From Deltaproteobacteria bacterium (GTDB lineage Bacteria; Desulfobacterota_D; UBA1144; Nemesobacterales; CSP1-2), in assembly GCA_016187835.1 (NCBI GenBank), contig JACPIY010000107.1, positions 1-63,038 of the forward strand: a stretch of 63,038 bases of DNA. Reading direction: 5' to 3'. Below the pieces are notes generated by a model, which searched no databases, was not told the DNA's origin, and was given only the letters and a program-made list of their open reading frames with translations. The position numbers were made by a program, and so were the translations under genes. Positions 1-52,597 of this stretch are shown here, one piece after another; within the stretch, counting starts at the first letter, position 1, and each line of letters opens with the position of its first letter.

Positions 1-1986
1 ACCCAATCTTCTTGCAATCTGCTTTATTATTTGCATTCGATCTTTTTCTCTTTCTGCCTTCTCAGCATCTTCCCTCGATAGATATTGATTACTCGTATTA
101 TCTTCGACAAGTTTACCGTCCCTGTCGTATATGCGGAGGATGAGCTTGGGTTCGACAAGTTTCCCTCCAGAGGCAAAGACATTAAATGCTTTTACCATCT
201 CTATAAGGGAGACTTCAGACCCGCCAAGTGCAAGAGAAGGATAGGGATTTAAATGGGATGTAAAGCCGAATTGCTTTGTATAATTCACAGCATAATTTGG
301 ATCAATATCCAAAAGAATCCTAACGCTCGCCAAATTTCTTGATTTTGCCAGCGCCTCTCTTAATGAGATCGGTCCCAGGTAACTACCATCATAGTTTTGT
401 GGAGCCCAGTTTTTAATTGCTACGGGCATATCATAAACGATTGTTGTCTCAGTATATCCCTTGTCTATAGCAGCGGCATATACTAGAGGTTTAAATGAAG
501 AACCAGGCTGCCTCGAAGCTTGCGTAGCCCTATTGAATTGAGACTCGAAAAAATCAAAACCCCCAACGACGGTTTTAACTAATCCTTTTGTATCCATAGC
601 TAAAAGCGCACCCTGGAACTGAGGTGCAATGTCTAAAGATACGTAATAACTTCCTTCTTCCTCCCTTTTTACATTTACTTTAACTACATCACCTACACCC
701 AGCTTAAAAGGAATCAAACTAATTCCATCGTATCCATTTAATGGAGCATAATTTGTAGATAATGGGAAGGATAAATTTTCTAAAGGCTTACCCAGAGGAG
801 AACTCACTCCAAAGCGAAGCTTGCCCTCCCACTTCCCTATTGCTATTTTTGCCTTAAAAACGCTTGGCGGAATCTCGTCCGCGACTTCGGTAACTACGGC
901 CTCATACGAGCTTCCTATGTCAATCTTATCAATATTAGGTGAGCTTCTAAAATTGTCTATCTCTTTCTTAGTGTTAAGATGTCTAAGTACAATCTTTCTT
1001 CCACGCCTCCCTGCAAGGTCTAGAATTCCTCGTCTTAAAGACCATTGAGCCGACAGGCTTAAATCAACATCAAGTGTAGTAAATACAGTGTAGCCTCCGT
1101 TAATAAAGGCTTGAGTGCCAAACTTGTTTTCTAAGTATTGTCTTACAAGCTCTACAAAATACGGAGCAACCTGATTATTTATGTCTCTCTTGGGAACGAT
1201 TTTAATCTGATATTCATCGGCTTTCCTTCTTTGTTGATCTGTAATTAGACCCTCTTCTTCCATTAATTTCAGTACAAGTCTCTGCCTGCTTATCGACCTA
1301 TCAAGATACTTGCGGGGAGAGTAGTACTCCGGACGCTTTGGGAGTCCGGCAAGAAGAGCCGCTTCAGCCAGATTTATGTCCTTTGCCGATTTGCCAAAGT
1401 AGCTCGTACTCGCCGCTTCGACACCGTAATTACCGTCTCCAAGATAAATATGATTGAGGTAGATGTAAAGAATCTCCTCTTTTGAAAGATTATTTTCCAT
1501 TCTGTAGGCAAGTATTGCCTCTTTGATTTTTCGAGATACGCTCTTTTCCGGGGAGAGAACGAGATTTTTTGCAACTTGTTGAGTAATCGTACTCCCTCCC
1601 TGAACTATCTCTCCTTCTCGAATGTTTTTTATGAGTGCGCCGACAACTCGTTTAAAATCAACGCCCTCGTGTTCAAAAAAGCGCTTATCTTCGACTGCTA
1701 TAAAGGCATTTCGGACGTGCTTAGGAATCTCCTCTAATTGTATGAGTTTTCTTTTTTCAGCAGTAAAATCGGCTATGAGCCTGCCATCGAAAGAATAAAC
1801 CTCGGTTATAAGACGGGGTTTATAACCTGTGATCTTTGTAAGATCTGGAAGGTCATGAGTAAAATACCAGTAAGCTAAATAGAGCGATAATAAAGATATG
1901 GACGTAAAACCAATTAGGGCGTACGCCAGTACTTTAGCTTTATTTCGTCTAAGTTGAAGGTTTATTCTCTTCTGTTTTCGTGCCAT
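1..1986 (-). CDS. mrcA: Class A penicillin-binding protein 1A (transglycosylase/transpeptidase), 3' end runs off the left edge
   Basis: Not in the ORF track. My minus-strand translation from ATG 1986 gives MARKQKR..., a TM segment, AVEDKRFFEHEGVD and QGGSTITQQVAKNL (transglycosylase motifs), and RQPGSSFKP (SxxK) near 490-515. Confidence 0.9.
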   Translation of the reverse strand, partial: MARKQKRINLQLRRNKAKVLAYALIGFTSISLLSLYLAYWYFTHDLPDLTKITGYKPRLITEVYSFDGRLIADFTAEKRKLIQLEEIPKHVRNAFIAVEDKRFFEHEGVDFKRVVGALIKNIREGEIVQGGSTITQQVAKNLVLSPEKSVSRKIKEAILAYRMENNLSKEEILYIYLNHIYLGDGNYGVEAASTSYFGKSAKDINLAEAALLAGLPKRPEYYSPRKYLDRSISRQRLVLKLMEEEGLITDQQRRKADEYQIKIVPKRDINNQVAPYFVELVRQYLENKFGTQAFINGGYTVFTTLDVDLSLSAQWSLRRGILDLAGRRGRKIVLRHLNTKKEIDNFRSSPNIDKIDIGSSYEAVVTEVADEIPPSVFKAKIAIGKWEGKLRFGVSSPLGKPLENLSFPLSTNYAPLNGYDGISLIPFKLGVGDVVKVNVKREEEGSYYVSLDIAPQFQGALLAMDTKGLVKTVVGGFDFFESQFNRATQASRQPGSSFKPLVYAAAIDKGYTETTIVYDMPVAIKNWAPQNYDGSYLGPISLREALAKSRNLASVRILLDIDPNYAVNYTKQFGFTSHLNPYPSLALGGSEVSLIEMVKAFNVFASGGKLVEPKLILRIYDRDGKLVEDNTSNQYLSREDAEKAEREKDRMQIIKQIARRLG

Positions 1987-2104
1987 ATTTTTAGGGTTAA
2001 TTTAAGAATAGCAAGCACATTATGCTTTTAAAAGTCAAAATTTCTCTTCCCAATCTTATTTAAACATTACAAGTTAAGTTAATTATCTGTTATTATAACA
2101 AACT

Positions 2105-2314
2105 ATGGAAGAAATAAAAAATCAATACTCCGAAACGTTTGATAGCTACATTCGTAATGTTGATGATCAGGAACTTAAGGGAGTACTCCTTAAGCTCAAA
2201 AACGAGATGCGAAAGCCAGACACTTCTTGGGAGATCATAAAAACGGTTCTTCAGTCCTTATTAAATAAGAATAAAGAAACACTCATAGAAATACTTCCAC
2301 TTATTTTAAAGTAG
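2105..2314 (+). CDS. Small hypothetical protein
   Basis: 69-aa ATG ORF divergent from PBP1A with helical composition; no recognisable motif. Confidence 0.55.
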   Translation: MEEIKNQYSETFDSYIRNVDDQELKGVLLKLKNEMRKPDTSWEIIKTVLQSLLNKNKETLIEILPLILK

Positions 2315-2440
2315 CAGTTACGAGATTTGTTATACCGGTTTTGGGTTTGAATTAAATCTTACGGGGCTTTCGTTTATTTGTCTTTCCTCACTCGCATCAT
2401 TATTATTATAGTTAAAAAATAGTGTCGCCAAGATAAAATT

Positions 2441-3379
2441 ATGAACAACTTATCCACAGTGAACAGTGTATTGGATTTAATCGGACGAACACCAGTAATA
2501 AAGCTTAATAAAGTTGTCCCGAAAAGAGCAGCCACGATTTGGGCAAAGCTCGAAAACCTCAATCCAGCAGGAAGCATAAAAGAAAGAATATGCCTAAAGA
2601 TGATTGAAGTAGCGGAAAAGGAACGCAAAATCATCCCGGGGAAAAGCGTGATCGTCGAACCCACGAGTGGTAATACGGGAATCGGGCTTGCCCTCGTTTG
2701 TGCAGTAAAGGGATATAGGTTGATACTTACGATGCCAGATGATATGAGTTTGGAAAGAAGGCTTCTTCTTGGTGCCTACGGAGCAGAGCTTATCCTTACG
2801 CCCGCTGCAGAAAAAATGGAAGGAGCCGTCCAAAAAGCCGAGGCAATCGTTCGTGAAAACCCAAACGCATTTATGCCTCAGCAGTTTAAAAACCAGGCAA
2901 ACCCAGATATGCATATATTAACTACAGGGCCAGAGATATTAGAGCAGATTCCGGGAGAGATCCATGCATTTGTTGCCGGAGTTGGAACTGGCGGAACAAT
3001 TACAGGAGTTGGTGAAATACTGCAAAAGCGATTCCCCCACATACACATAGTTGCAGTAGAGCCTGCCGAGTCAGCCGTACTTTCTGGTAAAAAGCCAAAT
3101 GTGCACGACATACAGGGAATAGGAGCAGGGTTTATTCCCGAAATTCTTAATACAAGAATCTATGATGAAGTAATAACAATAACCGGGAGGGAAGCAAAGG
3201 CATTTACAAAGTTCATTGCCAAAGAAGAAGGACTTCTTGTTGGCATCTCGGCAGGAGCCGCCGGGCTTGCGGCGGTGAGAGTAGCAGAAAACCTAGGTCA
3301 GGGAAAACAGGTTGTGACGATATTCTGCGACACTGGAGAAAGATATTTGAGCACCGAGGTCTTTAGTGAAAATGAATAA
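2441..3379 (+). CDS. cysK: Cysteine synthase A
   Basis: KLENLNPAGSIKER PLP-lysine motif, EPTSGNTGIGLA, GVGTGGTITG, IQGIGAGF, DTGERYLST. Confidence 0.95.
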   Translation: MNNLSTVNSVLDLIGRTPVIKLNKVVPKRAATIWAKLENLNPAGSIKERICLKMIEVAEKERKIIPGKSVIVEPTSGNTGIGLALVCAVKGYRLILTMPDDMSLERRLLLGAYGAELILTPAAEKMEGAVQKAEAIVRENPNAFMPQQFKNQANPDMHILTTGPEILEQIPGEIHAFVAGVGTGGTITGVGEILQKRFPHIHIVAVEPAESAVLSGKKPNVHDIQGIGAGFIPEILNTRIYDEVITITGREAKAFTKFIAKEEGLLVGISAGAAGLAAVRVAENLGQGKQVVTIFCDTGERYLSTEVFSENE

Positions 3380-3401
3380 AATAATAGGAGTGTAATTCGT
3401 A

Positions 3402-3429
3402 TTGAAAAGTGTTTTATGTGTGCTATCAT
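3402..3429 (+). promoter_or_regulatory. Putative sigma70 promoter of the ftsH operon
   Basis: TTGAAA-16 bp-TATCAT with TG extended -10, ~40 bp upstream of ftsH. Confidence 0.45.
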
Positions 3430-3466
3430 TTTTTAAACAACAATTTAGGTTTAAAATGAGGAGAAT

Positions 3467-5341
3467 GTGAGCAGTCAGCTTTTTAAAAACTTAATTTTAT
3501 GGTTAGTTATCTTTGTAGCCATAATTGCCTTATATCAGCTAATCCATACCCCCCAAAGCAATTATAAAGAAATCACTTATAGCGAATTCTTAAAAAGTCT
3601 CGAGAACGGGGAAATAGAAAAGCTTGAATTTAAGGGCGAAGAAATAAAAGGAACCTATAGAGGCGAGCTCCAGCAGGGCTTCAGGACCACGGGCCCTGCA
3701 AACGATGAACTTATTAAAACCCTAAGGGAAGCAAACGTAGCCTTTAGCTTTGCAGCAACAAGAGAAGGTTCTTTAACAAACATACTCTTTAACTGGGCCC
3801 CGCTTATTCTTCTAATCGTCATTATGGTTTTATTCATGCGTCAGATTCAAGCAGGCGGAACAAAAGCCATGTCATTTGGGAAAAGCCGCGCTCGAATGCT
3901 TACAGAAAACCAGAATAAAACCACATTCAAAGACGTTGCAGGAATCGATGAAGCAAAGGAAGAGGTTCAAGAAATCGTAGAATTCTTAAAAAACCCGAAA
4001 AAATTCACTCGCCTCGGTGGACGCATACCGAAAGGCGTTCTTCTCGTCGGACCACCGGGAACCGGGAAAACACTTCTTGCAAAAGCTATTGCAGGAGAAG
4101 CAGGCGTTCCTTTTTTTATAATCAGCGGAAGCGATTTCGTTGAGATGTTCGTAGGAGTTGGCGCATCAAGAGTAAGGGACCTTTTTGTACAGGCAAAACG
4201 TCACACTCCTTGCATTATATTCGTTGATGAACTTGATGCCGTCGGACGGCACCGCGGGGCAGGCCTAGGCGGAGGGCACGATGAAAGGGAACAAACCCTT
4301 AACCAGCTTCTCGTTGAGATGGATGGATTTGAAGCTAACGAGGGAACAATAGTTATTGCTGCAACCAACCGTCCCGATGTTCTCGACCCCGCTCTTCTTC
4401 GTCCCGGAAGGTTTGATCGTCAGGTGGTTGTACCAAGACCCGATGTAAGAGGAAGAGAAGAAATACTCAAAGTTCATACAAAGAATACGCCATTAAATGA
4501 GGACGTTACTCTTGGTCTAATAGCACGCTCAACGCCTGGTTTCTCAGGTGCAGACCTTCAAAACCTCGTGAATGAAGCTGCGCTTCACGCAGCACGTTTG
4601 GGAAGAGTACAGATAACTATGGAGGACTTTGAGTACGCAAAAGATAAGGTTATTATGGGGGTTGAAAGAAAGAGTCTCATTATAAGCGATAAAGAAAAAA
4701 AAATCACCGCATATCATGAAGGCGGGCACGCACTTGTTGCAAAACTCACTCCGGGGACGGATCCTATTCACAAGGTAACCATAATTCCACGGGGTCTTGC
4801 CCTTGGCGTTACCCAACAACTCCCCATAGAAGACAAATATACTCTTTCTAAGGGGTATCTTAACAACACAATTATGGTACTCCTTGGTGGTCGGGCAGCG
4901 GAAGAAATAATATTTGATGAAAAAACCAGCGGCGCTGGAAACGATCTTGAAAGAGCAACGGACATTGCAAGGAAGATGGTATGCGAATGGGGAATGAGTG
5001 ATAAGGTAGGACCAGTAACATTTGGCAAACCTGATGAACAGATATTTCTTGGCAAAGAGCTTTCTCGTCATAAAGACTATAGTGAAGCAACAGCAATGGA
5101 AATTGACGATGAAATAAAAAAAATAGTCACAGAGAATTACAAAAAAGCTAAAACAGTTCTTGAAGAAAACGTAGACCTGCTCCATAAACTGGCCGAAGTG
5201 CTACTTGACAAGGAAGTGGTTGACGGCAAAGAACTTGATGAACTCGTGAAAGAGGTAAGACCGGAGTATCCGTCTTGGGAGGGGGGAATTGGACAAAAAG
5301 GGACGGTGGCTCTACGAACCAAGAATATTGAGAATTCATAA
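3467..5341 (+). CDS. ftsH: ATP-dependent zinc metalloprotease FtsH
   Basis: Two N-terminal TM helices, GPPGTGKT Walker [24 protein letters not shown] zinc motif. Confidence 0.98.
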
Positions 5342-20521: not shown

Positions 20522-21409
20522 ATGAATCAACATGTAGATTCCTTTATTTCCTATCTTACGGTTGTAAGGGGGCTTTCAAAAAATACTTTAGAATCTTATG
20601 GAAGAGATGTTTTAAAGTTCGTTTCCTATCTCGAGGGTAAAGGGATAGCTAACCTTGATAACGTAGATTATAAACACATACTGGATTTTCTTTCGTCCTT
20701 GAAGGAACAGGGTCTTAACATAAGGTCTATAGCGCGAATTCTGGTGTCCATAAAACAGTTTTATAAGTTTCTTCTTATCGAAAAGATTATAGAAAAAGAT
20801 CCTACCTTTCTCATCCGCACACCAAAGATGAAAACATTCATTCCCGGTGTGCTTTCCCTGGATGATATTGAAAACCTGCTCACATCACCCGATGAAAATT
20901 CTTTTGAAGGAAACAGAGATAAAGCTATGCTTGAGGTTCTCTATGCAACTGGGATAAGGGTTTCAGAGCTTGTCGAACTGGAGCTTAATAGTGTAAACTT
21001 CGAATTGGGATACCTGCTCGTCTATGGAAAGGGAGGAAAGGAGAGATTAGTCCCGGTGGGAGAGAAAGCTATAAAGAAGTTGAATGAGTATTTGAATATA
21101 TCGAGACCGAAGCTTCTTAAATCCAGAAAGTCCATTTACCTTTTTGTCACCCGACGTGGCAGCAAAATGACCCGTCAGGGATTCTGGAAACTGATGAAGA
21201 ATTACGCTAATAAGATAGGAGTAAATAAAAAAATAAGTCCGCACACCCTAAGACATTCCTTTGCTACTCATCTCCTCGAACGCGGCGCCGATTTAAGGAC
21301 GATACAGATTATGCTCGGGCATTCGGATATTTCAACGACTCAGATTTATACCCATATTGAAAGGGAGAGACTGAAGGAAGTACATAAAAAATACCATCCA
21401 AGGTCTTAG
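20522..21409 (+). CDS. xerD: Site-specific tyrosine recombinase XerD
   Basis: LYATGIRVSEL, GKGGKERLVP, TRQGFWK, SPHTLRHSFATHLL, LGHSDISTTQIYTH, HPR end. Confidence 0.93.
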   Translation: MNQHVDSFISYLTVVRGLSKNTLESYGRDVLKFVSYLEGKGIANLDNVDYKHILDFLSSLKEQGLNIRSIARILVSIKQFYKFLLIEKIIEKDPTFLIRTPKMKTFIPGVLSLDDIENLLTSPDENSFEGNRDKAMLEVLYATGIRVSELVELELNSVNFELGYLLVYGKGGKERLVPVGEKAIKKLNEYLNISRPKLLKSRKSIYLFVTRRGSKMTRQGFWKLMKNYANKIGVNKKISPHTLRHSFATHLLERGADLRTIQIMLGHSDISTTQIYTHIERERLKEVHKKYHPRS

Positions 21410-44633: not shown

Positions 44634-44759
44634 TGTCATTGCGAGGAGTGAAACGACGAAGCAATCTATTTAGATTCCTCACTGCGTTCGGAATGACACC
44701 CTGTGTCTGATTGCTTCGCGGAGTTTACACCAAGCATGGCGAACGTGCCCGCAATGACA
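44634..44759. repeat. Composite nested palindromic element, copy 2
   Basis: TGTCATTGCGAGGAG..CGACGAAGCAATC..AGATTCCTCACTGCGTTCGGAATGACA..GATTGCTTCGCGGAGTTTACAC..GCAATGACA; same architecture as 34373-34545. Confidence 0.85.
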
Positions 44760-44777
44760 ATTATCACAACTGAGATG

Positions 44778-45494
44778 TTAACCATCACCATCGACAAAGC
44801 CTATAACCTCGGTCAAGCTTTCTATTCTATGCACATCGTTCCTGCTTTTATACTTCCCTTTCTTATCCAGCAAAATAACCCTAATCCCCACTGAGTTAGC
44901 TCCGTAAAAATCATATTCGAGGCTATCGCCTATGTGAATGCACTCGGATGGAGATACCTTGCTTTTGCTAAGAGCCAAGGAGAATATCTCAGGTGAAGGT
45001 TTTGAGAACCCCACTTCACTGGATATTACAAAGGAATCAAAGTAGTCTATGATCCCCAGATCAGTGCATACGTCATAAACTCTGGTGTCGAAATTTGATA
45101 TTATGCCCAATATCAATCCTCTCGCTTTAAGGAGCGATAAAACTTCCTTTGTTTCTGGAAATAGCTCCCATGCCTTGCTTCTAAACGTTTCAAAAAGCTC
45201 CTCGAAGTAGTCGTCAAATCGCTCAAACATACCCACTTCTGAAAAAACGTTTCTCACAACCTCATACCACCATTTCTTCTCATTGACTTTCCTATCTTCT
45301 GGAGAAAAGCCCGCAAAAGTTAGAGGAGGGGCAGATTTAAAAGCCCTGCTGAAGGCTTTTTCTATCGTCTCAGGTGTAGAGTTGGCGCCGTATTTTTTTG
45401 CCACACTCCAGTACTGGTTTCCTACTCCACCTTTAATATGAAAAAGTGTATCCGCAGCATCAAAAAAAACGGCTTTAACTCGGTTCTTGTCCAT
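44778..45494 (-). CDS. HAD-superfamily hydrolase (HAD-IA, REG-2-like)
   Basis: FFDAADTL, ISNFD, KPSPEIF, HIGDS..D; likely start ATG 45494. Confidence 0.9.
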   Translation of the reverse strand: MDKNRVKAVFFDAADTLFHIKGGVGNQYWSVAKKYGANSTPETIEKAFSRAFKSAPPLTFAGFSPEDRKVNEKKWWYEVVRNVFSEVGMFERFDDYFEELFETFRSKAWELFPETKEVLSLLKARGLILGIISNFDTRVYDVCTDLGIIDYFDSFVISSEVGFSKPSPEIFSLALSKSKVSPSECIHIGDSLEYDFYGANSVGIRVILLDKKGKYKSRNDVHRIESLTEVIGFVDGDG

Positions 45495-45557
45495 TACTAT
45501 CCTCTTTGAATAAAAAGCATCTTTAATATACACTCTATTTTTGTAAGGAGTAACAAA

Positions 45558-45956
45558 TTGAGAAAAATCAAACAAAGCCACAGAATCATCGCCATACTAG
45601 ACGACCTCTTTTTCTATTCAAAAATAAGAGAGGCGGCAAAGCCTCTCAACTTAGAATTAGAGTTTATAAAAAACCCCAATGGGCTAAGCCAAAAAATAAA
45701 ATCTGAAAAACCCTCCCTCCTCATATTTGATCTTAACTCGAAATCCTGCAATCCTCTGCAAATCATAAAAGACCTTAAGTCTTCGCCTGAGCTAAAGAAC
45801 ATTCCCATTCTCGGCTACCTGTCCCATGTTCAAACAGAATTAAAAGAGAAAGCCGTCGAAGCAGGATGCGACCTCGTGCTTCCTAGGTCAAGGCTTTCTA
45901 AGGATTTGAGGGAGATTTTAATGAGGTATTCAAGATATGGTTTGAAGAATTCTTAA
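45558..45956 (+). CDS. Stand-alone response regulator receiver-domain protein
   Basis: DDLFF, KPSLLIFDL, IPILG, AVEAGCDLV receiver-fold pattern. Confidence 0.75.
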   Translation: MRKIKQSHRIIAILDDLFFYSKIREAAKPLNLELEFIKNPNGLSQKIKSEKPSLLIFDLNSKSCNPLQIIKDLKSSPELKNIPILGYLSHVQTELKEKAVEAGCDLVLPRSRLSKDLREILMRYSRYGLKNS

Positions 45957-45980
45957 ATTAGATGGATTCAGAGTTGAACA

Positions 45981-46763
45981 ATGAATAGTGTCGTTGTATC
46001 CGGTATTCCAACAATCATGGTGCGAATTTATTATTCTTCTTACCATTTATGGGCTGCTGAACATTTTTATCAACTAGCTGGGGAAATTGAGGATGCACAT
46101 GAAGGACGATCTCGTTTTGATATTAAACATAGAGCCTATGTTACAAACACTATTCTATCATCGGTTGCATTCTTAGAAGCAGCTATTAATGAAGTGTTTC
46201 AAGATGCATTCGATAATTATCTAATTTACATTGGAAGTCTTAGCGTTGAAACTCGTAAAATTCTAGCCGATTTTTGGGACATGACGGAAGCCGATAACAA
46301 GTCTTTTGTATCAATCCTTGACAAATACCAGCTTGCACTACGTTTTGCTGGAATGGAACCGTTCAATAAAGGTGAAAATCCTTATCAAGACGCCAACTTA
46401 GTTGTCAAAATAAGAAACACGCTCATACACTATAAACCTCAATTATTAGGAGGTGAAAATATTCATCAACTTGAAGCCAAGTTAAAAGGGAAATTTCCTG
46501 AAAACAAGCTTATGTCTGGCTCAGCTGGTAATCCATATTTTCCAGATAAAGCATTAGGAAAAGGCTGCGCAGAGTGGACAGTGAAGTCAGTGCTAATCTT
46601 TGCAAATGGCTTCTTCTTAAGGATGGGTGTAATACCTCATTATAAAAAGGTAGAATTCACTAAACCTATAGCTGAGAAATTACCTAGGGATAAGTTAATA
46701 GTTCATTTTATTTTTTCCCTAAGTTTTGTAGCATTATCCTTCTCATATCCCAAATTCGGCTGA
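45981..46763 (+). CDS. Predicted HEPN-domain protein
   Basis: AFLEAAINE helix plus RNTLIH (Rx4H) motif; the C-terminal tail runs antisense into a metH 3'-end copy. Confidence 0.7.
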
Positions 46764-46876
46764 AGCCATTTTTCAACCTCTTCGATAGGCATATTCTTGC
46801 GTCTGGCGTAGTCCTCAACCTGATCTCGGTCTATTTGACCCACACGGAAATACTCCGTTCTGGGTCTGCGAAATAC
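46703..46876 (-). pseudogene. metH 3'-end duplicate, copy 1
   Basis: Aligns to 48890-49024; reads YFADPE-(1-nt deletion)[50 protein letters not shown]. Confidence 0.92.
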
Positions 46877-46948
46877 AAACGATTTAAAAACTTGTATGGA
46901 ACTGATTTTGTTTGTAAATTATAACTTCAACGGGTAAGTTAACTATTT

Positions 46949-47179
46949 ATGAAGCTAACGATAGAATTACCAGAAATTAAACCTCTTTCCGATTTGGATG
47001 ATGCATATTTGAAAGAAATGTTGATAGCTACTCTTTATCATGTTGGAAAGCTTTCGGCAAAAGAGGCCTCTATGATCCTGGATAAAACGAGGCGAGAGTT
47101 TGAAGAAATGCTACCTAAATTTGGTTTCTCGGTGCTTAATGATTCCCAAGAGAATATTGATATAGAGCTAAATGCGTAG
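46949..47179 (+). CDS. UPF0175-family putative antitoxin
   Basis: LY..GKLS..EA..IL..TRREFEE.L pattern; directly upstream of a DUF3368 PIN gene. Confidence 0.8.
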   Translation: MKLTIELPEIKPLSDLDDAYLKEMLIATLYHVGKLSAKEASMILDKTRREFEEMLPKFGFSVLNDSQENIDIELNA

Positions 47180-47184
47180 ATTCT

Positions 47185-47682
47185 ATGTCGAAAGCAATAG
47201 TCAGCGACACAAGTCCGCTCATATCTCTTGAGAAGATTAGCGGTGGTTTCAACTTTATCCGCAAGTTATATGATAAGGTTTTTATTCCACCAGCAGTATT
47301 AGAAGAACTGTCCAAAGGAAGTTTTTCAGACCCTGTAAAGTACCTGAAGAAATACAAGATAGAAGAACTGGTTGAAGTCAAACCCGTTTCAACAATTTCT
47401 GAGATTCCTGACATTGACCGATTAGATGAAGGAGAAAAGCAAGCTATCTCATTGGCTTATCAGTTGAATTTACCGTTATTAATCGAGGAAACAATGGGTC
47501 GTAGAATTGCGCTATCAGCCGGTATTCATATTTCAGGGATTGCAGGTCAGATTGTTAAAGCGTACAGAGAAAAAATTATTGAACGAACAGGAGCGACTCA
47601 TAAATTAAAAGAACTTTTTCAGTCCGGGCGCATCAGTAAAAAGCTTTATGATGCATTATCAGTTGCACTAGAACGTTCATAA
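47185..47682 (+). CDS. DUF3368-family PIN-domain protein (putative toxin)
   Basis: IVSDTSPLI, IPPAVLEEL, LDEGEKQAISLA, LLIEE..GRRIA. Confidence 0.85.
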   Translation: MSKAIVSDTSPLISLEKISGGFNFIRKLYDKVFIPPAVLEELSKGSFSDPVKYLKKYKIEELVEVKPVSTISEIPDIDRLDEGEKQAISLAYQLNLPLLIEETMGRRIALSAGIHISGIAGQIVKAYREKIIERTGATHKLKELFQSGRISKKLYDALSVALERS

Positions 47683-47810
47683 CCCAAATTCGGCTGAAGC
47701 CATTTTTCGACTTCTTGAATAGACATTCCCCTGCGTTGAACGCAGTCATTTACCTCATCGCGGTCTATTCAAACAATATGGAGGTATTTCTATTTAAGGT
47801 GGGCAAAGTA
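47676..47810 (-). pseudogene. metH 3'-end duplicate, copy 2
   Basis: Aligns without indels to 48890-49024; reads [43 protein letters not shown]. Confidence 0.9.
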
Positions 47811-47980
47811 AAAGGGTATTTAGAAATCTCCAGTAACCAAGCCTGTTAATTCATCACTATTTATAGAAACAGAGGACAAAGGACAAGAACTCTCGATGTA
47901 GTTAATACTGGACTTTCCTATTTATCAGTACAGAGGTAATATTGATATACAATGAGATCAAATAAAAAAAGGGTTATGCC

Positions 47981-48177
47981 ATGTATAAAATAGAATACGA
48001 AGGTAAGGACATAGTAATAAGGTTTGATAAAAACTCCCTTATGAATCTGCTTGAGTACATAGAAATTGAGCAAATCCGTAAAAAAGCAAGATTACAGAAA
48101 AGCAAGCAAAGCGTTTAGCTAAGGAAATCAATCAAAAAGTATGGGATAAGCTGAAAGGGAAATTCATTGAGGAGTAA
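47981..48177 (+). pseudogene. Frameshifted small putative antitoxin upstream of the PIN gene
   Basis: ATG 47981 MYKIEYEGKDIVIRF...IRKK; adding one A to the A6 run (48080-48085) continues SKITEKQAKRLAKEINQKVWDKLKGKFIEE* with the stop abutting the PIN TTG start. Confidence 0.7.
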
Positions 48178-48579
48178 TTGAACGAGAATAAACCCGTTAT
48201 TGTTGATACCAATATTCTTATATCCATTCTGCTCAGAAAGAAATCTACATTTCTTGAAACCTTAAGGTCTGCTAAATATCAATTCTATATTTGTGAATCA
48301 ACTATCATTGAGCTATTCAAACACAAAGATAGGATCATAGAGTACAGCGAATTATCAGAAGACAAGATTACCAAAGTTTACTACTTCCTTTTGAAAAGAG
48401 TTAATATCTTTAAAGAAGATTTGATTGAGAAATCCAATTGGGAAAGAGCCTATAAACTGTGTAAAGATGTAGATGAGACAGATACGCCTTTTGTCGCTTT
48501 GACATTGGAGTTAAACGGTTTGCTTTATTCAGGTGACAAGAAACTCAAAAATCATCTGAAAAGAAAAGGTTTAATTTGA
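48178..48579 (+). CDS. PIN-domain protein (putative toxin)
   Basis: VIVDTNILIS, ELFKH, DVDETDTPFVALTL, SGDKKL. Confidence 0.88.
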   Translation: MNENKPVIVDTNILISILLRKKSTFLETLRSAKYQFYICESTIIELFKHKDRIIEYSELSEDKITKVYYFLLKRVNIFKEDLIEKSNWERAYKLCKDVDETDTPFVALTLELNGLLYSGDKKLKNHLKRKGLI

Positions 48580-48636
48580 CCAAATAGACAACGTGGAGGT
48601 AAGTCTCACCCAGTTTAATAATTCCTATCAAGTAAC

Positions 48637-48800
48637 TGTCATTCGACCGAAGGGAGAAATCTTTGCCTTCGACATAACCTGAAAACAAAGAAGATTCCTC
48701 ACGTACGTTCGGAATGACACCTTTTTCAGATTGCTTCGCGGAGTTTATTCCTTCGCTTTGCTCAGGACGGGCTCTGAGGTATCGAAGTGACCAGAGTGAT
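48637..48800. repeat. Composite nested palindromic element, copy 3 (degenerate)
   Basis: TGTCATTCG..., AGATTCCTCACGTACGTTCGGAATGACA, GATTGCTTCGCGGAGTTTA and a nested CCTTCGCTTTGCTCAGGACGGGCT. Confidence 0.75.
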
Positions 48801-48874
48801 AGCCTTGAGAATTTTGACAGAGGGTGAAAATCGTGCTTACATTGTCCGACGGAATAAATCTTGATTATTACACT

Positions 48875-51800
48875 TTAACGTTTACCTCTTTCATAACCCA
48901 AATTCGGCTGAAGCCATTTTTCTACCTCATCCACAGACATATTCTTGCGTCTGGCGTAGTCCTCAATCTGGTCCCGGTCTATTTGACCAACGTGGAAATA
49001 CTTCGCTTCAGGGTGGGCAAAGTACCAGCCTGAAACAGAGCTTGGAGGATTCATGGCAAAATTTTCGGTAAGAGAAATCCCGGTATTAGTTTCAGCATCG
49101 AGCAACTTCCAAAGCATACTCTTTTCAGTGTGGTCGGGGCAAGCTGGATAACCGGGCGCAGGGCGTATTCCCCTATATTTCTCTTTAATCAGGTTTTCAA
49201 AGGAAAGGTTTTCGTCCTTACCGTAACCCCAAAGAATTCGCGCTCTTTTATGCATCATTTCTGCAAGCGCTTCGGCAAAGCGATCGCCAAGAGCTTTCAC
49301 TATGATTGATGAGTAGTCATCATTTTTCGCTTTGAAAGTCTCGGCAAATTCTTCCACCTCATAACCCGCTGTAACAGCAAAGCCTCCGATGTAATCTTTT
49401 CGCCCTGAATCCTTCGGCGCAACAAAATCAGAAAGACAGTAATAAACACTGTCTTCCGCTTCCTTATCTCTCTGCTGACGCAGGAAATGAAACGTTCCAA
49501 GAGCTTCTTTACGGAAGTCATTGATGTAAACTTCTATATCATCTCCAATGCTATTCGCAGGCCAGAAGGCAATTACAGCACGGGCTCCAAAGCGTCTTTC
49601 CTTCACGATTTCTCCAAGAAGCCTCTCGGCATCTCTGAAGAGCTCCCGCGCCTGTTTACCGTACTTTTCATGCTCAAATATTTTGGGATAGACGCCTTTC
49701 AAATCCCAAGCCCAGAAAAATGGAGACCAGTCTATAAACGGAACTACCTCCTCAAGTGGTATGTCATCAAGAATCCGCAAGCCTAATTTTTTCGGGGTAT
49801 CAATCCGAACACTCTTCCAATCCGTTTTAAATCCTTTGGCGCGAGCTTCTTCCATAGATATGAAATTCCTTTGACTTTTTCCAGCCGCATAACGCTTGCG
49901 TTGTTCCTCTTGTTTCTGGCGGAGTTTTTCTTTATAGGACTCAAGTTTTTCAGGGTTTAGCAGCTCATTGCATACCCCAATAACAAGAGATGCATCCAGA
50001 ACGTGTTCGACGACACCGCCATATTGCGGAGCAATCTTGATTGCGGTGTGGGCTTTACTGGTTGTAGCTCCGCCTATGAGAAGTGGTATCTTAAAACCCT
50101 GGCGTTCCATCTCGGAAGCGTTATAGACCATCTCGTCAAGAGATGGAGTGATGAGTCCGCTCATGCCGATTATGTCGGCTTTTACTTCCCTGGCAGTGTT
50201 TAGAATCTTTTCACTGGGAACCATAACACCAAGGTCAAAAACCTCATAATTATTGCAGGCAAGAACGACAGAGACGATATTTTTCCCAATGTCGTGTACG
50301 TCGCCCTTTACCGTAGCAATAACAAACTTTCCTTGATTTCTTGTGTTTTGAGTCTTAGCTTTTTCCGCCTCCATAAATGGTTGAAGGTAAGCAACGGCTT
50401 TTTTCATAACGCGGGCACTTTTTACTACCTGAGGAAGAAACATCTTGCCCGCCCCGAAGAAGTCCCCTACAACCTTCATGCCATCCATGAGAGGACCTTC
50501 AATAACATCAAGAGGCCTTTCATATTGTTGACGGGCTTCCTCAGTATCCTCCTCGATATAATCAGTAATTCCGTTAACAAGAGCATAACTAAGGCGTTCA
50601 TTCACGGTGCCTCTGCGCCATGCTTTTTCATCTTTGATTTTATCTTTACCTTTATCCTTAACTCGTTCCGCAAAATCAATGAGCCGTTCCGTTGCGTCAG
50701 GTCTCAGATTGAGAAGAACATCCTCTACTAATTCAAGTAGCTCCTTGTCAATGTCTTCATAGACCGCCAGCATCCCGGCATTCACGATTCCCATATCAAG
50801 CCCGGCTTTGATTGCATGGTATAGAAAAACACTGTGCATGGCTTCGCGCACCAAATCGTTGCCGCGAAATGAAAAAGATATGTTGCTTATTCCACCGCTC
50901 GTACGGACTCCAGGACAGATAGCTTTAATCTCTCTTAAAGCTTCTATAAAGTCGAGAGCGTAGTTGTTATGCTCTTCTATCCCTGTAGCCACAGTGAGGA
51001 CGTTGGGGTCAAAAATAATATCAGTCGGATCCATTCCGACCTGTTCGGTCAGAAGCTTATATGCACGGTGACAAATACGAGCCTTGTCGGCTTTAGTTGC
51101 GGCTTGTCCTTCTTCATCAAAAGCCATAACCACAACGGCTGCGCCGTAGCGCATAATCAGACCTGCCTGATCAAGAAATTTTTTCTCCCCCTCTTTAAGG
51201 CTTATGGAATTCACAACGCACTTGCCTTGGATAGATCGAAGACCAGCTTCGATAACAGACCACTTAGAGCTGTCTATCATAGCAGGAACACGGGAAATAT
51301 CGGGTTCTGATGCAATCAGGTTTAAAAAGCGGGCCATGCAGGCTTCACCATCAAGCAGAGCTTCATCAAAATTTACGTCAATAATATTTGCACCGTTTTC
51401 TACCTGCTGCCTTGCAACGGATAGAGCTCCTTCAAAATCGTCTGCTTTAATGAGCTGCGCGAATTTTGGTGAGCCCGTTACGTTTGTGCGTTCTCCTATC
51501 ATGATAAAAGGAGTTGCATCGCCTTCTATTTTAAGAGGTTCAAGACCGCTGAGGCGTGTGGCCGGGGGAAGTTTGGGAATCTTGCGTGGAGGAATATCTC
51601 GCAATTTTTGTACTATAGCGCGTATATGTTGTGGTGTAGTTCCGCAACAGCCTCCAACTATGTTTATAAACCCGCTCCTAGCAAACTCTTCAAGATAACC
51701 TGATGTATCATCAGGTGTTTGATCGTAACCCGTGTCGCTTAGAGGATTGGGAAGCCCAGCATTTGGGTAGCAACTAGCGTAACACTCCGCAATTTTGGAA

Positions 51801-52597
51801 AGCTCTTCCATATAGGGGCGCATTTCCTTAGCCCCTAAAGCACAATTAATACCCACACTCAAGGGCTTAGCGTGCATAACGGAATACCAGAAAGCCTCAA
51901 TGGTTTGTCCAGAGAGGGTGCGTCCTGATGCGTCAGTAATCGTCACAGATAACATCACGGGGACGCGTACAGGATATTCATCAAAAAATTTCTCGATGGC
52001 AAAAATGGCGGCTTTTAAGTTGAGAGTATCAAAAGTAGTTTCAGGAAGAAGTATATCAATCCCGCCGTCAATAAGCCCTTTTACCTGCTCGTAATAAGCG
52101 TCAACCAATTCCTGAAAGGTGACGGCACGAAAGGCAGGATTGTTAACGTCAGGCGACATTGATGCAGTTTTGTTAGTTGGTCCCAGGGCTCCTGCCACAA
52201 AACATTTGCGTCCAGGGCTTCTTGACATAAATTCATCTACCATTTTTCGGGCGATTCCTGCAGCGGATTTATTCAGCTCATAGGCGATATGTTCAAGTCC
52301 ATAGTCGGCCTGAGAAATTCTCGTGCTGTTAAAGGTATTGGTTTCAATGATGTCCGCTCCTGCTTCGAGATATTCACGATGTATGCTGGCGATAATATCG
52401 GAACGGGTCAGATTCAAAAGGTCGTTGTTTCCTTTGAGGTCTTTATGATGATTCTTAAAGCGCTCGCCTCTAAAGTCTGCTTCTTCCAGCTTATATCGTT
52501 GAATCATAGTGCCCATTGCACCGTCAAGAAAGAGGATGCGCTCTTCGAGCAATTGACGGAGAACCTCTGCTTTTCTGGTTTCAGGTTTCTTTTGCAT
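48875..52597 (-). CDS. metH: Cobalamin-dependent methionine synthase
   Basis: [30 protein letters not shown]12-binding motif, [12 protein letters not shown]. Confidence 0.98.

Follow-up and report, generated by a model that had tools for sequence, protein, structure and literature searches.

The 3' end of the methionine synthase gene metH occurs three times, in the same orientation, within a 63,038-nt stretch of DNA (hereafter the window) from an uncultured groundwater bacterium whose genome is a metagenome bin of 107 contigs, and the copies alternate with small toxin-antitoxin and defence genes (table 1). The array is a variant of arrangements that are already known and not an integron-like system, and it resembles modes of movement of selfish genes that are known but little understood. 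The explanation favoured here, with about even confidence, is that recombination within the repeated gene end adds and removes compact cassettes consisting of a gene end and addiction cargo, and that this recombination is traceably homologous (Campbell type).

Table 1. Features of the metH array and its flanks, with positions in the window.
Feature	Position	Strand	Basis or remark
HAD hydrolase, conserved flank	44778..45581	minus	Pfam
Receiver-domain protein, conserved flank	45558..45956	plus	Pfam
HEPN-like single-gene cargo, 260 aa	45981..46763	plus	HEPN_RiboL-PSP E 0.066, below threshold
metH tail copy 3 (distal)	46742..46876	minus	1-nt deletion near 5' end, remainder in frame
UPF0175 antitoxin-like protein, 76 aa, unit 2 cargo	46949..47179	plus	PF03683 E 8.4e-8
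PDC-S70/DUF3368-like protein, 165 aa, unit 2 cargo	47185..47682	plus	PADLOC PDC-S70 E 1.3e-28
metH tail copy 2	47676..47810	minus	middle very diverged, two in-frame stops near 5' end
PIN partner gene, antitoxin-like, unit 1	47981..48177	plus	homologous loci encode 66-78 aa
PIN_2-domain toxin, 133 aa, unit 1 cargo	48178..48579	plus	PF10130 E 8.6e-25
High-copy repeat, ~300 nt, MITE-like, between metH stop and PIN gene	48573..48872		separate from tail repeat
metH, full-length methionine synthase gene, 1240 aa	48875..52597	minus	ORF; NF007024 and TIGR02082
metH tail copy 1 (live), 135 nt, ending ...LGYERGKR*	48890..49024	minus	repeat search, self-blastn
26-nt block, live copy	48897..48922	minus	0 mismatches among all three tails

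The live gene matches NF007024 from residue 6 to 1236 (profile positions 5-1232 of 1234), and both NF007024 and TIGR02082 reach E 0 in an NCBIfam profile search. A repeat search returned one family of three direct copies of the final 135 nt of metH with spacings of 934 and 1214 nt, and self-blastn agreed with the number, orientation, positions and inner unit lengths (~0.93 and ~1.2 kb) that an earlier note on this DNA had given. Identity over 135 nt is 74.8% between the live tail (48890-49024) and copy 2 (47676-47810) and 85.9% between the live tail (48891-49025) and copy 3 (46743-46876), which outside its 1-nt deletion is 86-90% identical to live tails. As six-frame peptides the two extra copies match at E 6.0e-22 and 8.5e-18. 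The in-frame stops of copy 2, TAG and TGA, fall within its first 14 codons, and its middle agrees with the live tail at 28 of 49 positions while identity is complete over its first 13 and its last 33 nt. The likeness to metH ends at the same place in both displaced copies, within ~2 nt, and it is at this shared 5' edge that copy 2 and the live tail are identical (13/13). The 26-nt block lies at 47683-47708 in copy 2 and at 46749-46774 in copy 3, forms with the next 7 nt a 33-nt block common to the live copy and copy 2, recurs identically in the metH end of a related genome (L014) and has partial dyad symmetry. No further site was found in the 2.86-Mb genome with up to 3 mismatches allowed, and searches for the block found no match in genome_contigs or viral_contigs and a single one in metagenome_contigs, an ordinary metH end. 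The distinct C-terminal tails that had been ascribed to the copies exist as three extensions, as quoted, but they are read-through into whatever DNA adjoins; that of copy 2 reads the terminal part of the 165-aa gene in antisense.

Most differences between the tails are synonymous, a bias that had been noticed before: the dN/dS comparison gives an omega of 0.16-0.20 for the live tail and copy 3 (36 codons, pS 0.27-0.32) and 0.37 for the live tail and copy 2, and pS among the copies reaches 0.46. Because the differences are mostly synonymous, the tails are diverged alleles of different lineages, shaped by purifying selection, and not one decayed duplication. The view that they are formerly functional alleles agrees with these omega values, but it overlooked the two stops of copy 2 and the deletion of copy 3; the displaced copies are partly decayed and not intact alleles. 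Identity along the tails is mosaic. Before the 26-nt block, the live tail, copy 3 and the L014 tail are about equidistant (65-67/78 identical) and copy 2 is more distant (49-51/78). In a test that ignores local protein constraint, the 33-nt identical run of copy 2 and the live tail at the 3' end was matched by 9 of 20000 shuffles and a 29-nt identical run of the live tail and copy 3 in mid-tail by 455 of 20000.

The cargo differs from metH in composition (32-38% GC vs 45%), and among 101 genomes of the order, the source genome included, the PIN protein was found in one and the 165-aa protein in two; the low GC and near absence from the order indicate foreign cargo on local tails. The identities first proposed for the cargo hold at Pfam level for PIN_2 and UPF0175, but DUF3368 and HEPN stay below the Pfam threshold. 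The 165-aa protein (DUF3368 E 0.09, PIN_6 E 0.12, both under threshold) is supported by its PDC-S70 match, and the HEPN-like protein by R145, N146 and H150, which are invariant in an 11-sequence alignment. The PIN toxin has eight related loci elsewhere, each with a partner gene of 66-78 aa upstream; in the array a frameshift within the A run near 48079 leaves the partner only 45 aa long, and behind 48079 a contig of run X5 has one additional A. Unit 2 is compact, with 72 nt between the tail edge and the UPF0175 start and the stop codon of the 165-aa gene inside the metH-derived TTATGAA of copy 2. The 214 homologs of the HEPN-like protein are mostly 215-255 aa long and end near query residue 232-240, and the final ~25 residues of the ORF are read-through beyond these ends, antisense to copy 3. 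The ~300-nt repeat reaches contig depths of 1000-5000, with many loose ends at 48573 and 48872 and a partial second copy at 44634-44730.

Downstream of the array, the HAD-receiver flank (44778..45956) is syntenic in L014 at 77-78% DNA identity, where metH is followed by a single different cargo gene and then the same flank. This confirms that the slot between metH and the flank is variable. A search of 100 other genomes of the order found no second metH array. In run X6, from another study, a 251-nt contig of a related strain connects 46692-46792 with 47758-47873 by 34 other letters and forms one hybrid tail, copy-2-like at its 5' side and copy-3-like at its 3' side, with the junction near AATAGACCG and without unit 2; this variant is represented by a single contig of depth 2.1. 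For unit 1, neither a circle nor an empty-site junction was seen. The proposal that units of metH end plus cargo were added serially agrees with the tails being alleles under selection, with the foreign GC of the cargo and with the X6 tail that lacks the middle unit.

The same layout was found at no fewer than eight other loci of the genome, where two copies of a gene end enclose small cargo, for the most part toxin-antitoxin or defence genes (including MazF twice, PIN, CopG, DarG and DUF433) and no integrase is present. The repeats, 66 to 249 nt long, derive from the 3' ends of acrB-like, Eco57I-type MTase, GT4, leuB-like, dynamin-like GTPase and radical-SAM genes and from the 5' ends of mnmA and hsdR, and omega at the other 3' ends is 0.08-0.32 (leuB 0.19 over 81 codons, no indel). 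Since the layout recurs at these genes, the array is not special to metH, and the idea of metH as a dedicated integron-like platform is supported neither by this nor by the tails, in which no attC-like hairpin was found (DNA fold z-scores -1.6 to 0.01). Chromosomal integron arrays with toxin-antitoxin cassettes are similar in having ~1-kb units in one orientation, new units added at one end and many units whose toxin-antitoxin genes stabilise the array. They differ in that the metH array has no adjoining intI or attI, its boundaries are coding gene ends and not attC hairpins, and its units carry their own upstream regions.

Neither a recombinase nor a fragment of one is present in the metH array, and the earlier statement that no integrase is present held for the array and its surroundings in profile, tblastn and motif searches. 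The genome has 13 PF00589 matches, the nearest at 20852-21364, 25 kb away; none of 22 genome matches to TIGR02249 (E<=10) lies inside any of the nine arrays, eight local recombinases compared with these arrays by tblastn gave E>0.1 throughout, and the IntI N-terminal motif is absent from the window. A tblastn search of limited reach with the eight local recombinases found none within 1.5 kb of metH in the loci of 29 relatives. Longer, recombinase-bearing elements with the same metH tail, which the earlier note had proposed to look for, were found neither in the contig collections nor, within that reach, in these loci. The canonical island of the genome, at tRNA-Leu on contig C81, has kept its integrase and a 66-nt repeat that is 98.5% identical. 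N-terminal fragments of integron integrases are present elsewhere in the genome, and one of them, judged by eye, adjoins the third GT4 tail copy.

Under the favoured explanation, a circular molecule of tail plus cargo would enter by a single Campbell-type crossover with the resident tail. The live gene would keep its own sequence upstream of the crossover and receive the incoming end downstream, and the resident gene end would be pushed downstream as the displaced copy; reciprocal recombination within the repeated metH end would remove a cassette again. Such exchange would depend on the host recombination machinery and on transfer between related species, and the toxins would have a stabilising role: cargo of the toxin-antitoxin and defence type would predominate because direct repeats tend to be lost by loop-out deletion unless an addiction module makes such a loss costly. 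The first unit of tail plus cargo may have originated by an integrase event. Traceable exchanges at different tail positions point to homologous rather than one-site recombination, and the contrast with the tRNA-Leu island and the lack of structured sites in the tails argue in the same direction. Counting against it are the missing circle and empty site for unit 1, the X6 depth of 2.1, the lack of a second metH array and the integron-integrase fragments elsewhere in the genome. Host recombination between 135-nt partners that are only 67-81% identical is expected to be inefficient, which also weighs against homologous exchange. Integrase-free spread of tiny accessory loci is known from the minimal mobile elements of Neisseria, with the same likeness and differences as the toxin-antitoxin islets. 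Islets that hold only toxin-antitoxin genes are thought to spread among relatives by homologous recombination at flanking conserved core genes, in the account given in PMC13617665, and the innermost metH slot differs between the source genome and L014 in exactly that way. In such islets a double crossover in both flanks replaces the cargo and no gene end is duplicated, whereas at metH a single-sided homology is duplicated and units accumulate. Furuta, Abe and Kobayashi (2010, PMC2853133) propose for restriction-modification (RM) genes a cycle of invasion, amplification and release that relies on long direct repeats.

The main rival reading, possible but doubtful, is that small elements which integrate by a tyrosine integrase, or one of another type, were inserted serially into the metH 3' end. 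Each would have supplied a replacement gene end, its integrase would later have been deleted or would act from elsewhere, the units would be CIME-like remnants held by toxin-antitoxin genes, and the tail mosaics would stem from later homologous exchange. A fixed crossover site would directly explain the 5' edge common to both displaced copies, and the 26-nt block, which is partly symmetric and does not vary among the copies or in L014, could be a recombinase core; however, apart from the ordinary metH end the block occurs at no other place in the collections searched. Low omega is also expected if an element-borne end is expressed while integrated, and the genome holds many recombinase genes and fragments besides the intact tRNA-Leu island. 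Against this, none of the nine arrays contains an integrase or a fragment of one, no recombinase adjoins metH in the relatives within the reach stated above, nine different target genes would require many specificities, all lost, and exchanges are traceable at three different positions. Unit 2 has no spare DNA, which random decay of a larger island would rarely produce. Phage 21 integrates into icd of Escherichia coli, as does e14. The att repeats of CIMEs are short and near-identical, and tandem accretion of ICEs and IMEs at a gene 3' end is reportedly documented for ICESt1-related elements (by Pavlovic in 2004 and Bellanger in 2011). The precedents for an integrase include e14, which enters a housekeeping gene at its 3' end, brings ~160 bp of replacement sequence for that end and leaves the old end as a displaced pseudo-fragment of 163 bp (PMC6379469). 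However, e14 is a prophage of the 15-kb class that has an integrase of its own and crosses over at a fixed site, whereas the metH units measure 0.9-1.2 kb, lack an integrase and show exchanges at several positions. CIMEs likewise stack in tandem and move in cis or trans with help, but those described can be traced to ICEs or IMEs with a common att site and integrase in related strains (PMC5704250), and none was found here. Toxin-antitoxin systems are also described as outlasting the mobile elements that carried them in (PMC13617665). Together with the RM insertions, e14 and CIME accretion are close precedents, and the suggestion of an undescribed system is not supported.

It is improbable that each cargo entered only once, by end-joining or one-sided homology, with its target duplicated, and never moved again. 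Insertion of RM gene units with long target duplication was reportedly described by Nobusato et al. in 2000. Addictive RM units between direct target repeats of 46-423 bp, often overlapping a gene 3' end, are documented in several phyla, without mobility genes and with related genomes in which the site is empty or differently filled (PMC2853133), and the varying repeat lengths among the loci of the present genome would suit such events. In the published cases one target is duplicated and its copies agree at 93-100% (44/46, 47/47, 417/423, 384/412 and 388/397; PMC2853133), whereas the repeats here are alleles of 67-89% identity shaped by selection, stacked serially (three tails) and associated with toxin-antitoxin and defence cargo instead of RM genes. 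Omega is well under the ~0.5 expected for one freely decaying copy, two independent illegitimate joints are not expected to share an edge, and only later exchange would account for the mosaic blocks and the X6 hybrid tail.

An assembly chimera, in which the shared block would have linked co-occurring strains that each carry other cargo after metH, is very unlikely, even for a metagenome bin of many contigs. Contigs assembled at k=31 end at the 33-nt block common to two tails and at the ~300-nt repeat, so that for the order of unit 1 the original assembly is the sole source, its position having no independent confirmation, and depths of the three segments differ in run X1 (47.8, 24.1 and 33.9). 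They are similar in run X2 (27.3, 32.5 and 27.7), however, and one contig in each of two runs extends from 44702 (or 44643) to 47705 with 1 mismatch and so covers copy 3 with its two flanks, the whole of unit 2 and part of copy 2. The joints between cargo ends and tail 5' edges share no k-mers able to mislead a graph assembler, 150-nt reads resolve a 33-nt repeat, and the layout is repeated on eight other contigs. Simple decay of the metH end after an ancient tandem duplication in place, the cargo having come in afterwards by other routes, would fit the tandem order of the direct repeats, the stops and the frameshift but is scarcely credible given the low omega (0.16-0.37) at such pS, a distance between copy 3 and the live tail equal to that to another species' tail, an identical block of 26-33 nt amid 57-86% identity and unrelated cargo in each interval.

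The metH gene encodes a complete methionine synthase (NF007024 profile match) and is followed on the chromosome by two further copies of its own 3′ end. A repeat search of the window located the terminal 135 nt of metH in three direct copies spaced 934 and 1214 nt apart, and the tail positions read from the sequence in the earlier note were returned by a whole-genome self-blastn (48890-49024 against 47676-47810, 74.8% identity over 135 nt; 48891-49025 against 46743-46876, 85.9% over 135 nt). At the peptide level, the additional copies align with the end of live metH at E 6.0e-22 and 8.5e-18. The array is real. A block of 26 nt is identical in all three tails and was found at no further site in the 2.86-Mb, 107-contig source genome (G000), in which the window makes up contig C84 in full, even with up to 3 mismatches; 10 other genomes of the order differ from it in 2-3 positions. 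Within the collections searched, an exact search for the block gave 0 matches in genome_contigs and viral_contigs and 1 match, a plain metH end, in metagenome_contigs.

Locations of the array components, recombinase genes and duplicated gene ends (window coordinates unless a contig is named; contigs of the source genome except for G058)
Feature	Location	Strand	Description
metH	48875..52597	minus	1240 aa; NF007024, residues 6-1236 = profile positions 5-1232/1234
Live metH tail (copy 1)	48890-49024	minus	
Copy 2	47676-47810	minus	
Copy 3	46742-46876	minus	
High-copy MITE-like repeat	48573-48872		~300 nt; directly after the metH stop codon
Unit 1	between live tail and copy 2		PIN_2 toxin (E 8.6e-25) and small upstream partner
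Unit 2	between copies 2 and 3		165-aa protein and UPF0175 protein (E 8.4e-8)
Conserved flank	beyond the 260-aa gene		receiver-domain protein and HAD hydrolase
Xer-like tyrosine recombinase gene	20564-21370		PF00589, E 4.1e-50; nearest to the array, 25 kb away
Integrative element at tRNA-Leu(CAG)	C81:39716-46536		two tRNA copies; 66-nt repeat, 98.5% identical
Integron-type integrase fragments	C104:27341-28000, C73:14309-14641, C23:22846-23025, C11:9631-11898, C58:23971-24042, C64:16595-16642		
AcrB-family gene	C10:28355-29689		3′ end
Eco57I-type methylase	C103:29948-31754		3′ end; cargo DUF433 and weak Y1-transposase-like match
GT4 glycosyltransferase	C11:32197-34286		3′ end; three copies, MazF
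leuB-like dehydrogenase	C14:5352-7266		3′ end; 249 nt, 89%
Dynamin-like GTPase	C77:33225-37423		3′ end; MazF and DUF2281 among five genes
Radical-SAM gene	C20:8297-11342		3′ end
mnmA	C54:8356-11012		5′ end; three copies, PIN and CopG
hsdR	C82:22049-24068		5′ end; DarG, E 2.3e-86
Duplication in G058 (L045)	G058:C1:1433000-1449000		metH end, autotransporter-like gene and start of def repeated ~7.7 kb downstream

Outward from metH, the array consists of the ~300-nt repeat, unit 1, copy 2, unit 2, copy 3, a gene encoding a 260-aa protein and the flank. The repeat has a second site in the window (44634-44730) and reaches contig depths of about 1000-5000 in groundwater metagenomes. The PIN_2 gene keeps its upstream partner in all eight related loci; the partner gene (47981-48177) encodes 45 aa in the assembly, its reading frame being shifted in a run of A near 48079, compared with 66-78 aa at the homologous loci, and a contig of sequencing run X5 carries one extra A near the same position. 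This shift may reflect a homopolymer or assembly error, a difference between strains, or damage to an antitoxin whose toxin is intact. The 165-aa protein gave sub-threshold Pfam matches to DUF3368 (E 0.09) and PIN_6 (E 0.12) and a PADLOC match to the defence candidate PDC-S70 (E 1.3e-28). Judged by domain and small adjoining partner gene, the PIN_2/partner and UPF0175/165-aa pairs both have the layout of type II toxin-antitoxin modules. A total of 214 homologs of the 260-aa protein were detected, mostly 215-255 aa in length, and PF18735 is carried by 2 of the best 120 of these; the protein itself matches Pfam HEPN_RiboL-PSP below the cut-off (E 0.066), and R145, N146 and H150, which would form an Rx4H HEPN-type motif, are invariant among 11 aligned members of the family. 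Since the homologs end near query residue 232-240, the last ~25 residues of the 260-aa reading frame are read-through antisense to copy 3; the stop codon of the 165-aa gene falls within the metH-derived TTATGAA of copy 2. The separate C-terminal endings of the tail copies, which had been taken as marks of past function, are thus junction sequence produced by read-through into abutting DNA and carry no sign of such function.

The GC content of the cargo genes is 0.32-0.38, compared with 0.45 for metH and 0.41 for the window. Among 100 other genomes of the order, the PIN toxin had no match at E<=1e-5; the 165-aa protein had one match in other genomes of the order, at 31% identity and not on the metH contig of that genome. 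Eight PIN-pair loci were found at 38-76% identity in metagenome-assembled genomes from other phyla. None of these eight loci, nor the one 165-aa locus elsewhere, carries a metH tail (best E 0.24) or matches any of eight recombinases of the source genome, and self-blastn found no direct repeats flanking the PIN loci. By composition and distribution the array cargo appears foreign to this lineage.

A comparison in segments shows that the tails are mosaic. In copy 2 the first 13 and last 33 nt agree fully with the live end, and the stretches in between match it at 16/27 and 28/49 positions; copy 3 matches the live end at 30/40 positions at the 5′ end and 42/49 in the middle. When the mismatch positions were shuffled 20000 times, 9 shuffles gave an identical run as long as the 33 nt of copy 2 and the live end, and 8 of 20000 one as long as the 26 nt of copies 2 and 3, under a null that takes no account of local protein constraint. 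Sequencing run X6, from another study, contains a relative whose metH and PIN pieces show about 93% identity. A single contig of this run (251 nt, depth 2.1) lacks unit 2 and connects 46692-46792 with 47758-47873 by way of 34 other letters. Its 5′ part is copy-2-like and includes 63 nt of the unit 1 flank, its 3′ part is copy-3-like and includes 50 nt on the side of the 260-aa gene, with the junction near AATAGACCG. Judged by eye, about 28 of the 34 letters agree with copy 3, far more than with copy 2. Gain or loss of unit 2 through a reciprocal crossover within a tail would be expected to leave such a single hybrid tail.

The related 2.1-kb metagenome contig L014 carries a single metH tail with the exact 26-nt block, one different convergent gene (sub-threshold DUF5677, E 1.3e-5; 25.8 bits, the cut-off being 27.1) and then the receiver and HAD genes, so that L014 provides the uninterrupted target in a relative that characterizes insertions with long target duplication, as does the one X6 contig (depth 2.1). 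More than one tail match was found in 4 of 101 genomes of the order, including the source genome. Two candidates for a second array were rejected: G058, a genome with high GC from a different family of the order, contains a ~7.7-kb segmental duplication that also repeats autotransporter-like and def genes, with two ORFs of 500 and 585 aa between the copies, and this duplication represents a different process; contig C9 of G093 begins with a frameshifted 3′ part of metH and is uninformative. G072 shows two overlapping partial tail matches. Downstream of metH, L014 thus differs in content and the X6 contig lacks unit 2; no further array was found among the 100 other genomes of the order.

Self-blastn, ORF maps, alignments and domain searches of the source genome identified eight further genes whose ends are repeated 0.7-4 kb away around small cargo, always in direct orientation and with the second copy being a fragment, not a paralog. 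The cargo includes MazF twice, PIN, CopG, DarG, DUF433 and unknowns. A 59-nt identical run at the methylase locus was reached by 1 of 20000 shuffles, with a weaker excess of long identical runs at leuB, C77 (dynamin-like GTPase) and mnmA and no excess over shuffles at acrB, GT4, hsdR and C20 (radical-SAM). By eye, the sequence in front of the third GT4 copy translates like an IntI N-terminus; HMM and tblastn searches gave no signal for it.

All searches for recombinases at the array were empty. PF00589 has 13 matches in the genome, and the only recombinase match in the window is the Xer-like gene, which also accounts for both window matches among the 22 genome matches (E<=10) to the integron-integrase model TIGR02249; at 45900-49100 and in the eight other arrays this model had no match at E<=10. 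A tblastn search with the eight local recombinases gave nothing below E 0.1 in any of the nine arrays. The IntI N-terminal motif occurs on contigs C11, C58, C64 and C73 and is absent from the window, and profile, tblastn and motif searches detected no integron-integrase scars in the metH array. Of the integron-type integrase fragments scattered over the genome, one covers the C-terminal two-thirds of the gene, another its N-terminal third, and several span 20-35 codons each; no intact gene was seen among them. DNA folds of the three tails on both strands had z values of -1.60 to 0.01 (16-103 of 200 shuffles fold as well), so the tails are not attC-like, R′/R″ core motifs having been inspected by eye only. 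Both intI and attC are absent from the metH array: with no adjoining integrase gene and boundaries that are not attC hairpins, membership in an integron was rejected. By tblastn with the eight local recombinases, no match lies within 1.5 kb of metH in 29 loci of relatives, and no recombinase-bearing element sharing the metH tail, of the longer kind that the earlier note proposed to look for, was found in the source genome, the order or the collections. The array junctions gave only 14-19 nt matches (E 0.03-0.8) in the genome by blastn-short; a similarity between the 18 nt just outside one displaced tail and those outside the other (about 10/18 by eye) was too weak to count. Overall, the earlier description of serial tail and cargo units without an integrase is largely right, but the array is neither integron-like nor specific to metH, since the layout recurs at eight other genes.

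Every model considered requires recombination inside the repeated gene end. The leading explanation, judged to have an even chance of being correct, is that compact cassettes of tail and cargo cycle by integrase-free homologous recombination in the repeated gene end; Campbell-type integration of such a cassette would need the host recombination machinery only. The lack of recombinases at nine loci, the compact form of unit 2, exchanges at differing positions and the bias toward addictive cargo are all explained in this way, as other cargo would be looped out between the direct repeats. The model accounts less well for the common starting nucleotide of the two displaced copies and for the origin of the first unit of tail and cargo.

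The shared 5′ edge of the displaced copies is explained by the alternative that integrases, since lost or acting in trans, drove accretion at the metH 3′ end, and the identical 26-nt block speaks for a fixed core position. Sound precedents exist: a 163-bp icd end is displaced by e14 (as described in PMC6379469), and CIMEs are described as units lacking an integrase that are retained between att sites containing the target gene's end (PMC5704250). The direct order of the three tails and the full-length live metH agree with CIMEs and tandem accretion; a related recombinase-bearing element with the same att site was not found in the genome, the order or the collections searched. The source genome contains a canonical island on contig C81, where a 309-aa integrase adjoins one tRNA copy and an integrase fragment the other, and which serves as an internal control for integrase-bearing insertion. 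Against accretion by integrases, unseen enzymes for many targets and later homologous exchange would both be needed, and identity blocks at three places together with the position of the X6 junction speak against a fixed core. This alternative is regarded as doubtful, though it is the strongest of the rivals.

The closest published layout is that of RM insertions with long target duplication, defined in the account of PMC2853133 by a direct target repeat of >30 bp, an insert of <20 kb and no mobility genes; the metH array has 135-nt repeats, units of 0.93 and 1.21 kb and no recombinase or transposase match. The repeat pairs of RM genes in that account are 93-100% identical, whereas the metH tails are 67-81% identical over 135 nt with omega (a dN/dS-type ratio from Nei-Gojobori counts) of 0.16-0.37. 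With these precedents, the suggestion of an undescribed system is not supported. What the array offers is a clear example, extending over several loci, of cassettes stacked at gene ends without an integrase. A one-off illegitimate insertion is considered improbable.

An assembly artefact is very improbable. Parts of the stretch occur in eleven sequencing runs, and 0.92-0.93 of its sampled words in four of these, all belonging to one study; contigs of X1, X2, X5 and X6 were aligned with it. X1 and X2 each have a contig that runs from 44702 (or 44643) to 47705 with a single mismatch and confirms both copy 3 junctions and all of unit 2. A second contig covers 47679-48615 and a third begins at 48893; because contigs are interrupted at the high-copy repeat and where copy 2 and the live end share 33 nt, the placement of unit 1 depends on the original assembly. 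Contig depths are means over whole contigs, and depth differences between X1 segments were given no weight; X5 covers the region in patches at depth 2-5, so its gap over unit 2 is uninformative.

Simple duplication is hardly credible: a copy decaying freely after in-place duplication is expected to show omega near 0.5 or above, and the values found at metH were 0.16-0.20 for the live end and copy 3 (pS 0.27-0.32 over 30-36 codons), 0.37 for the live end and copy 2, and 0.27 for copies 2 and 3. Elsewhere in the genome omega is 0.08-0.32 at six 3′-end loci besides metH, and 0.27 and 0.64 at the two 5′ ends. The low omega at metH agrees with the suggestion that the tails are formerly functional alleles. 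The copies are nonetheless partly broken: the first 14 codons of copy 2 include in-frame TAG and TGA, and copy 3 lacks 1 nt close to its 5′ end. Over the 78 nt ahead of the block, the live end, copy 3 and L014 are about equidistant (65-67/78 identical), and copy 2 stands apart (49-51/78). As L014 is only 77-80% identical to the source genome in metH and flank genes, this equidistance indicates that the tails derive from lineages at least species-level apart.

A wider reading is tentative and falls short of even confidence: in this lineage, addiction and defence genes could move as integrase-free mini-circles whose sole attachment site is a copy of a housekeeping gene's end, with host homologous recombination inserting them and rebuilding the gene at every insertion, toxins holding them and the repeats releasing them, at many genes (metH, leuB, mnmA, acrB and others). 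If true, this would be a self-sustaining cycle of mobile cassettes and would supply a mechanism for the unexplained insertions with long target duplication. Toxin-antitoxin and defence genes lie dispersed over bacterial chromosomes in tiny islets that show no means of moving. If gene-end homology and host recombination suffice to insert, stack and release such cassettes, their spread without integrases would be explained, as would the displaced gene ends scattered in some genomes and the dominance of addictive cargo at such sites. If integrases were simply lost, the array would be an ordinary accretion scar at metH, a gene not reported as a target in a literature search that was not metH-specific. 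The source genome offers at least nine loci at which the idea can be tested in metagenome reads. Contig C20 also carries a 129-nt direct repeat (1859-1986 and 4743-4871; 89% identity, spacing 2.9 kb), which may be a further instance of what is seen at the duplicated gene ends.
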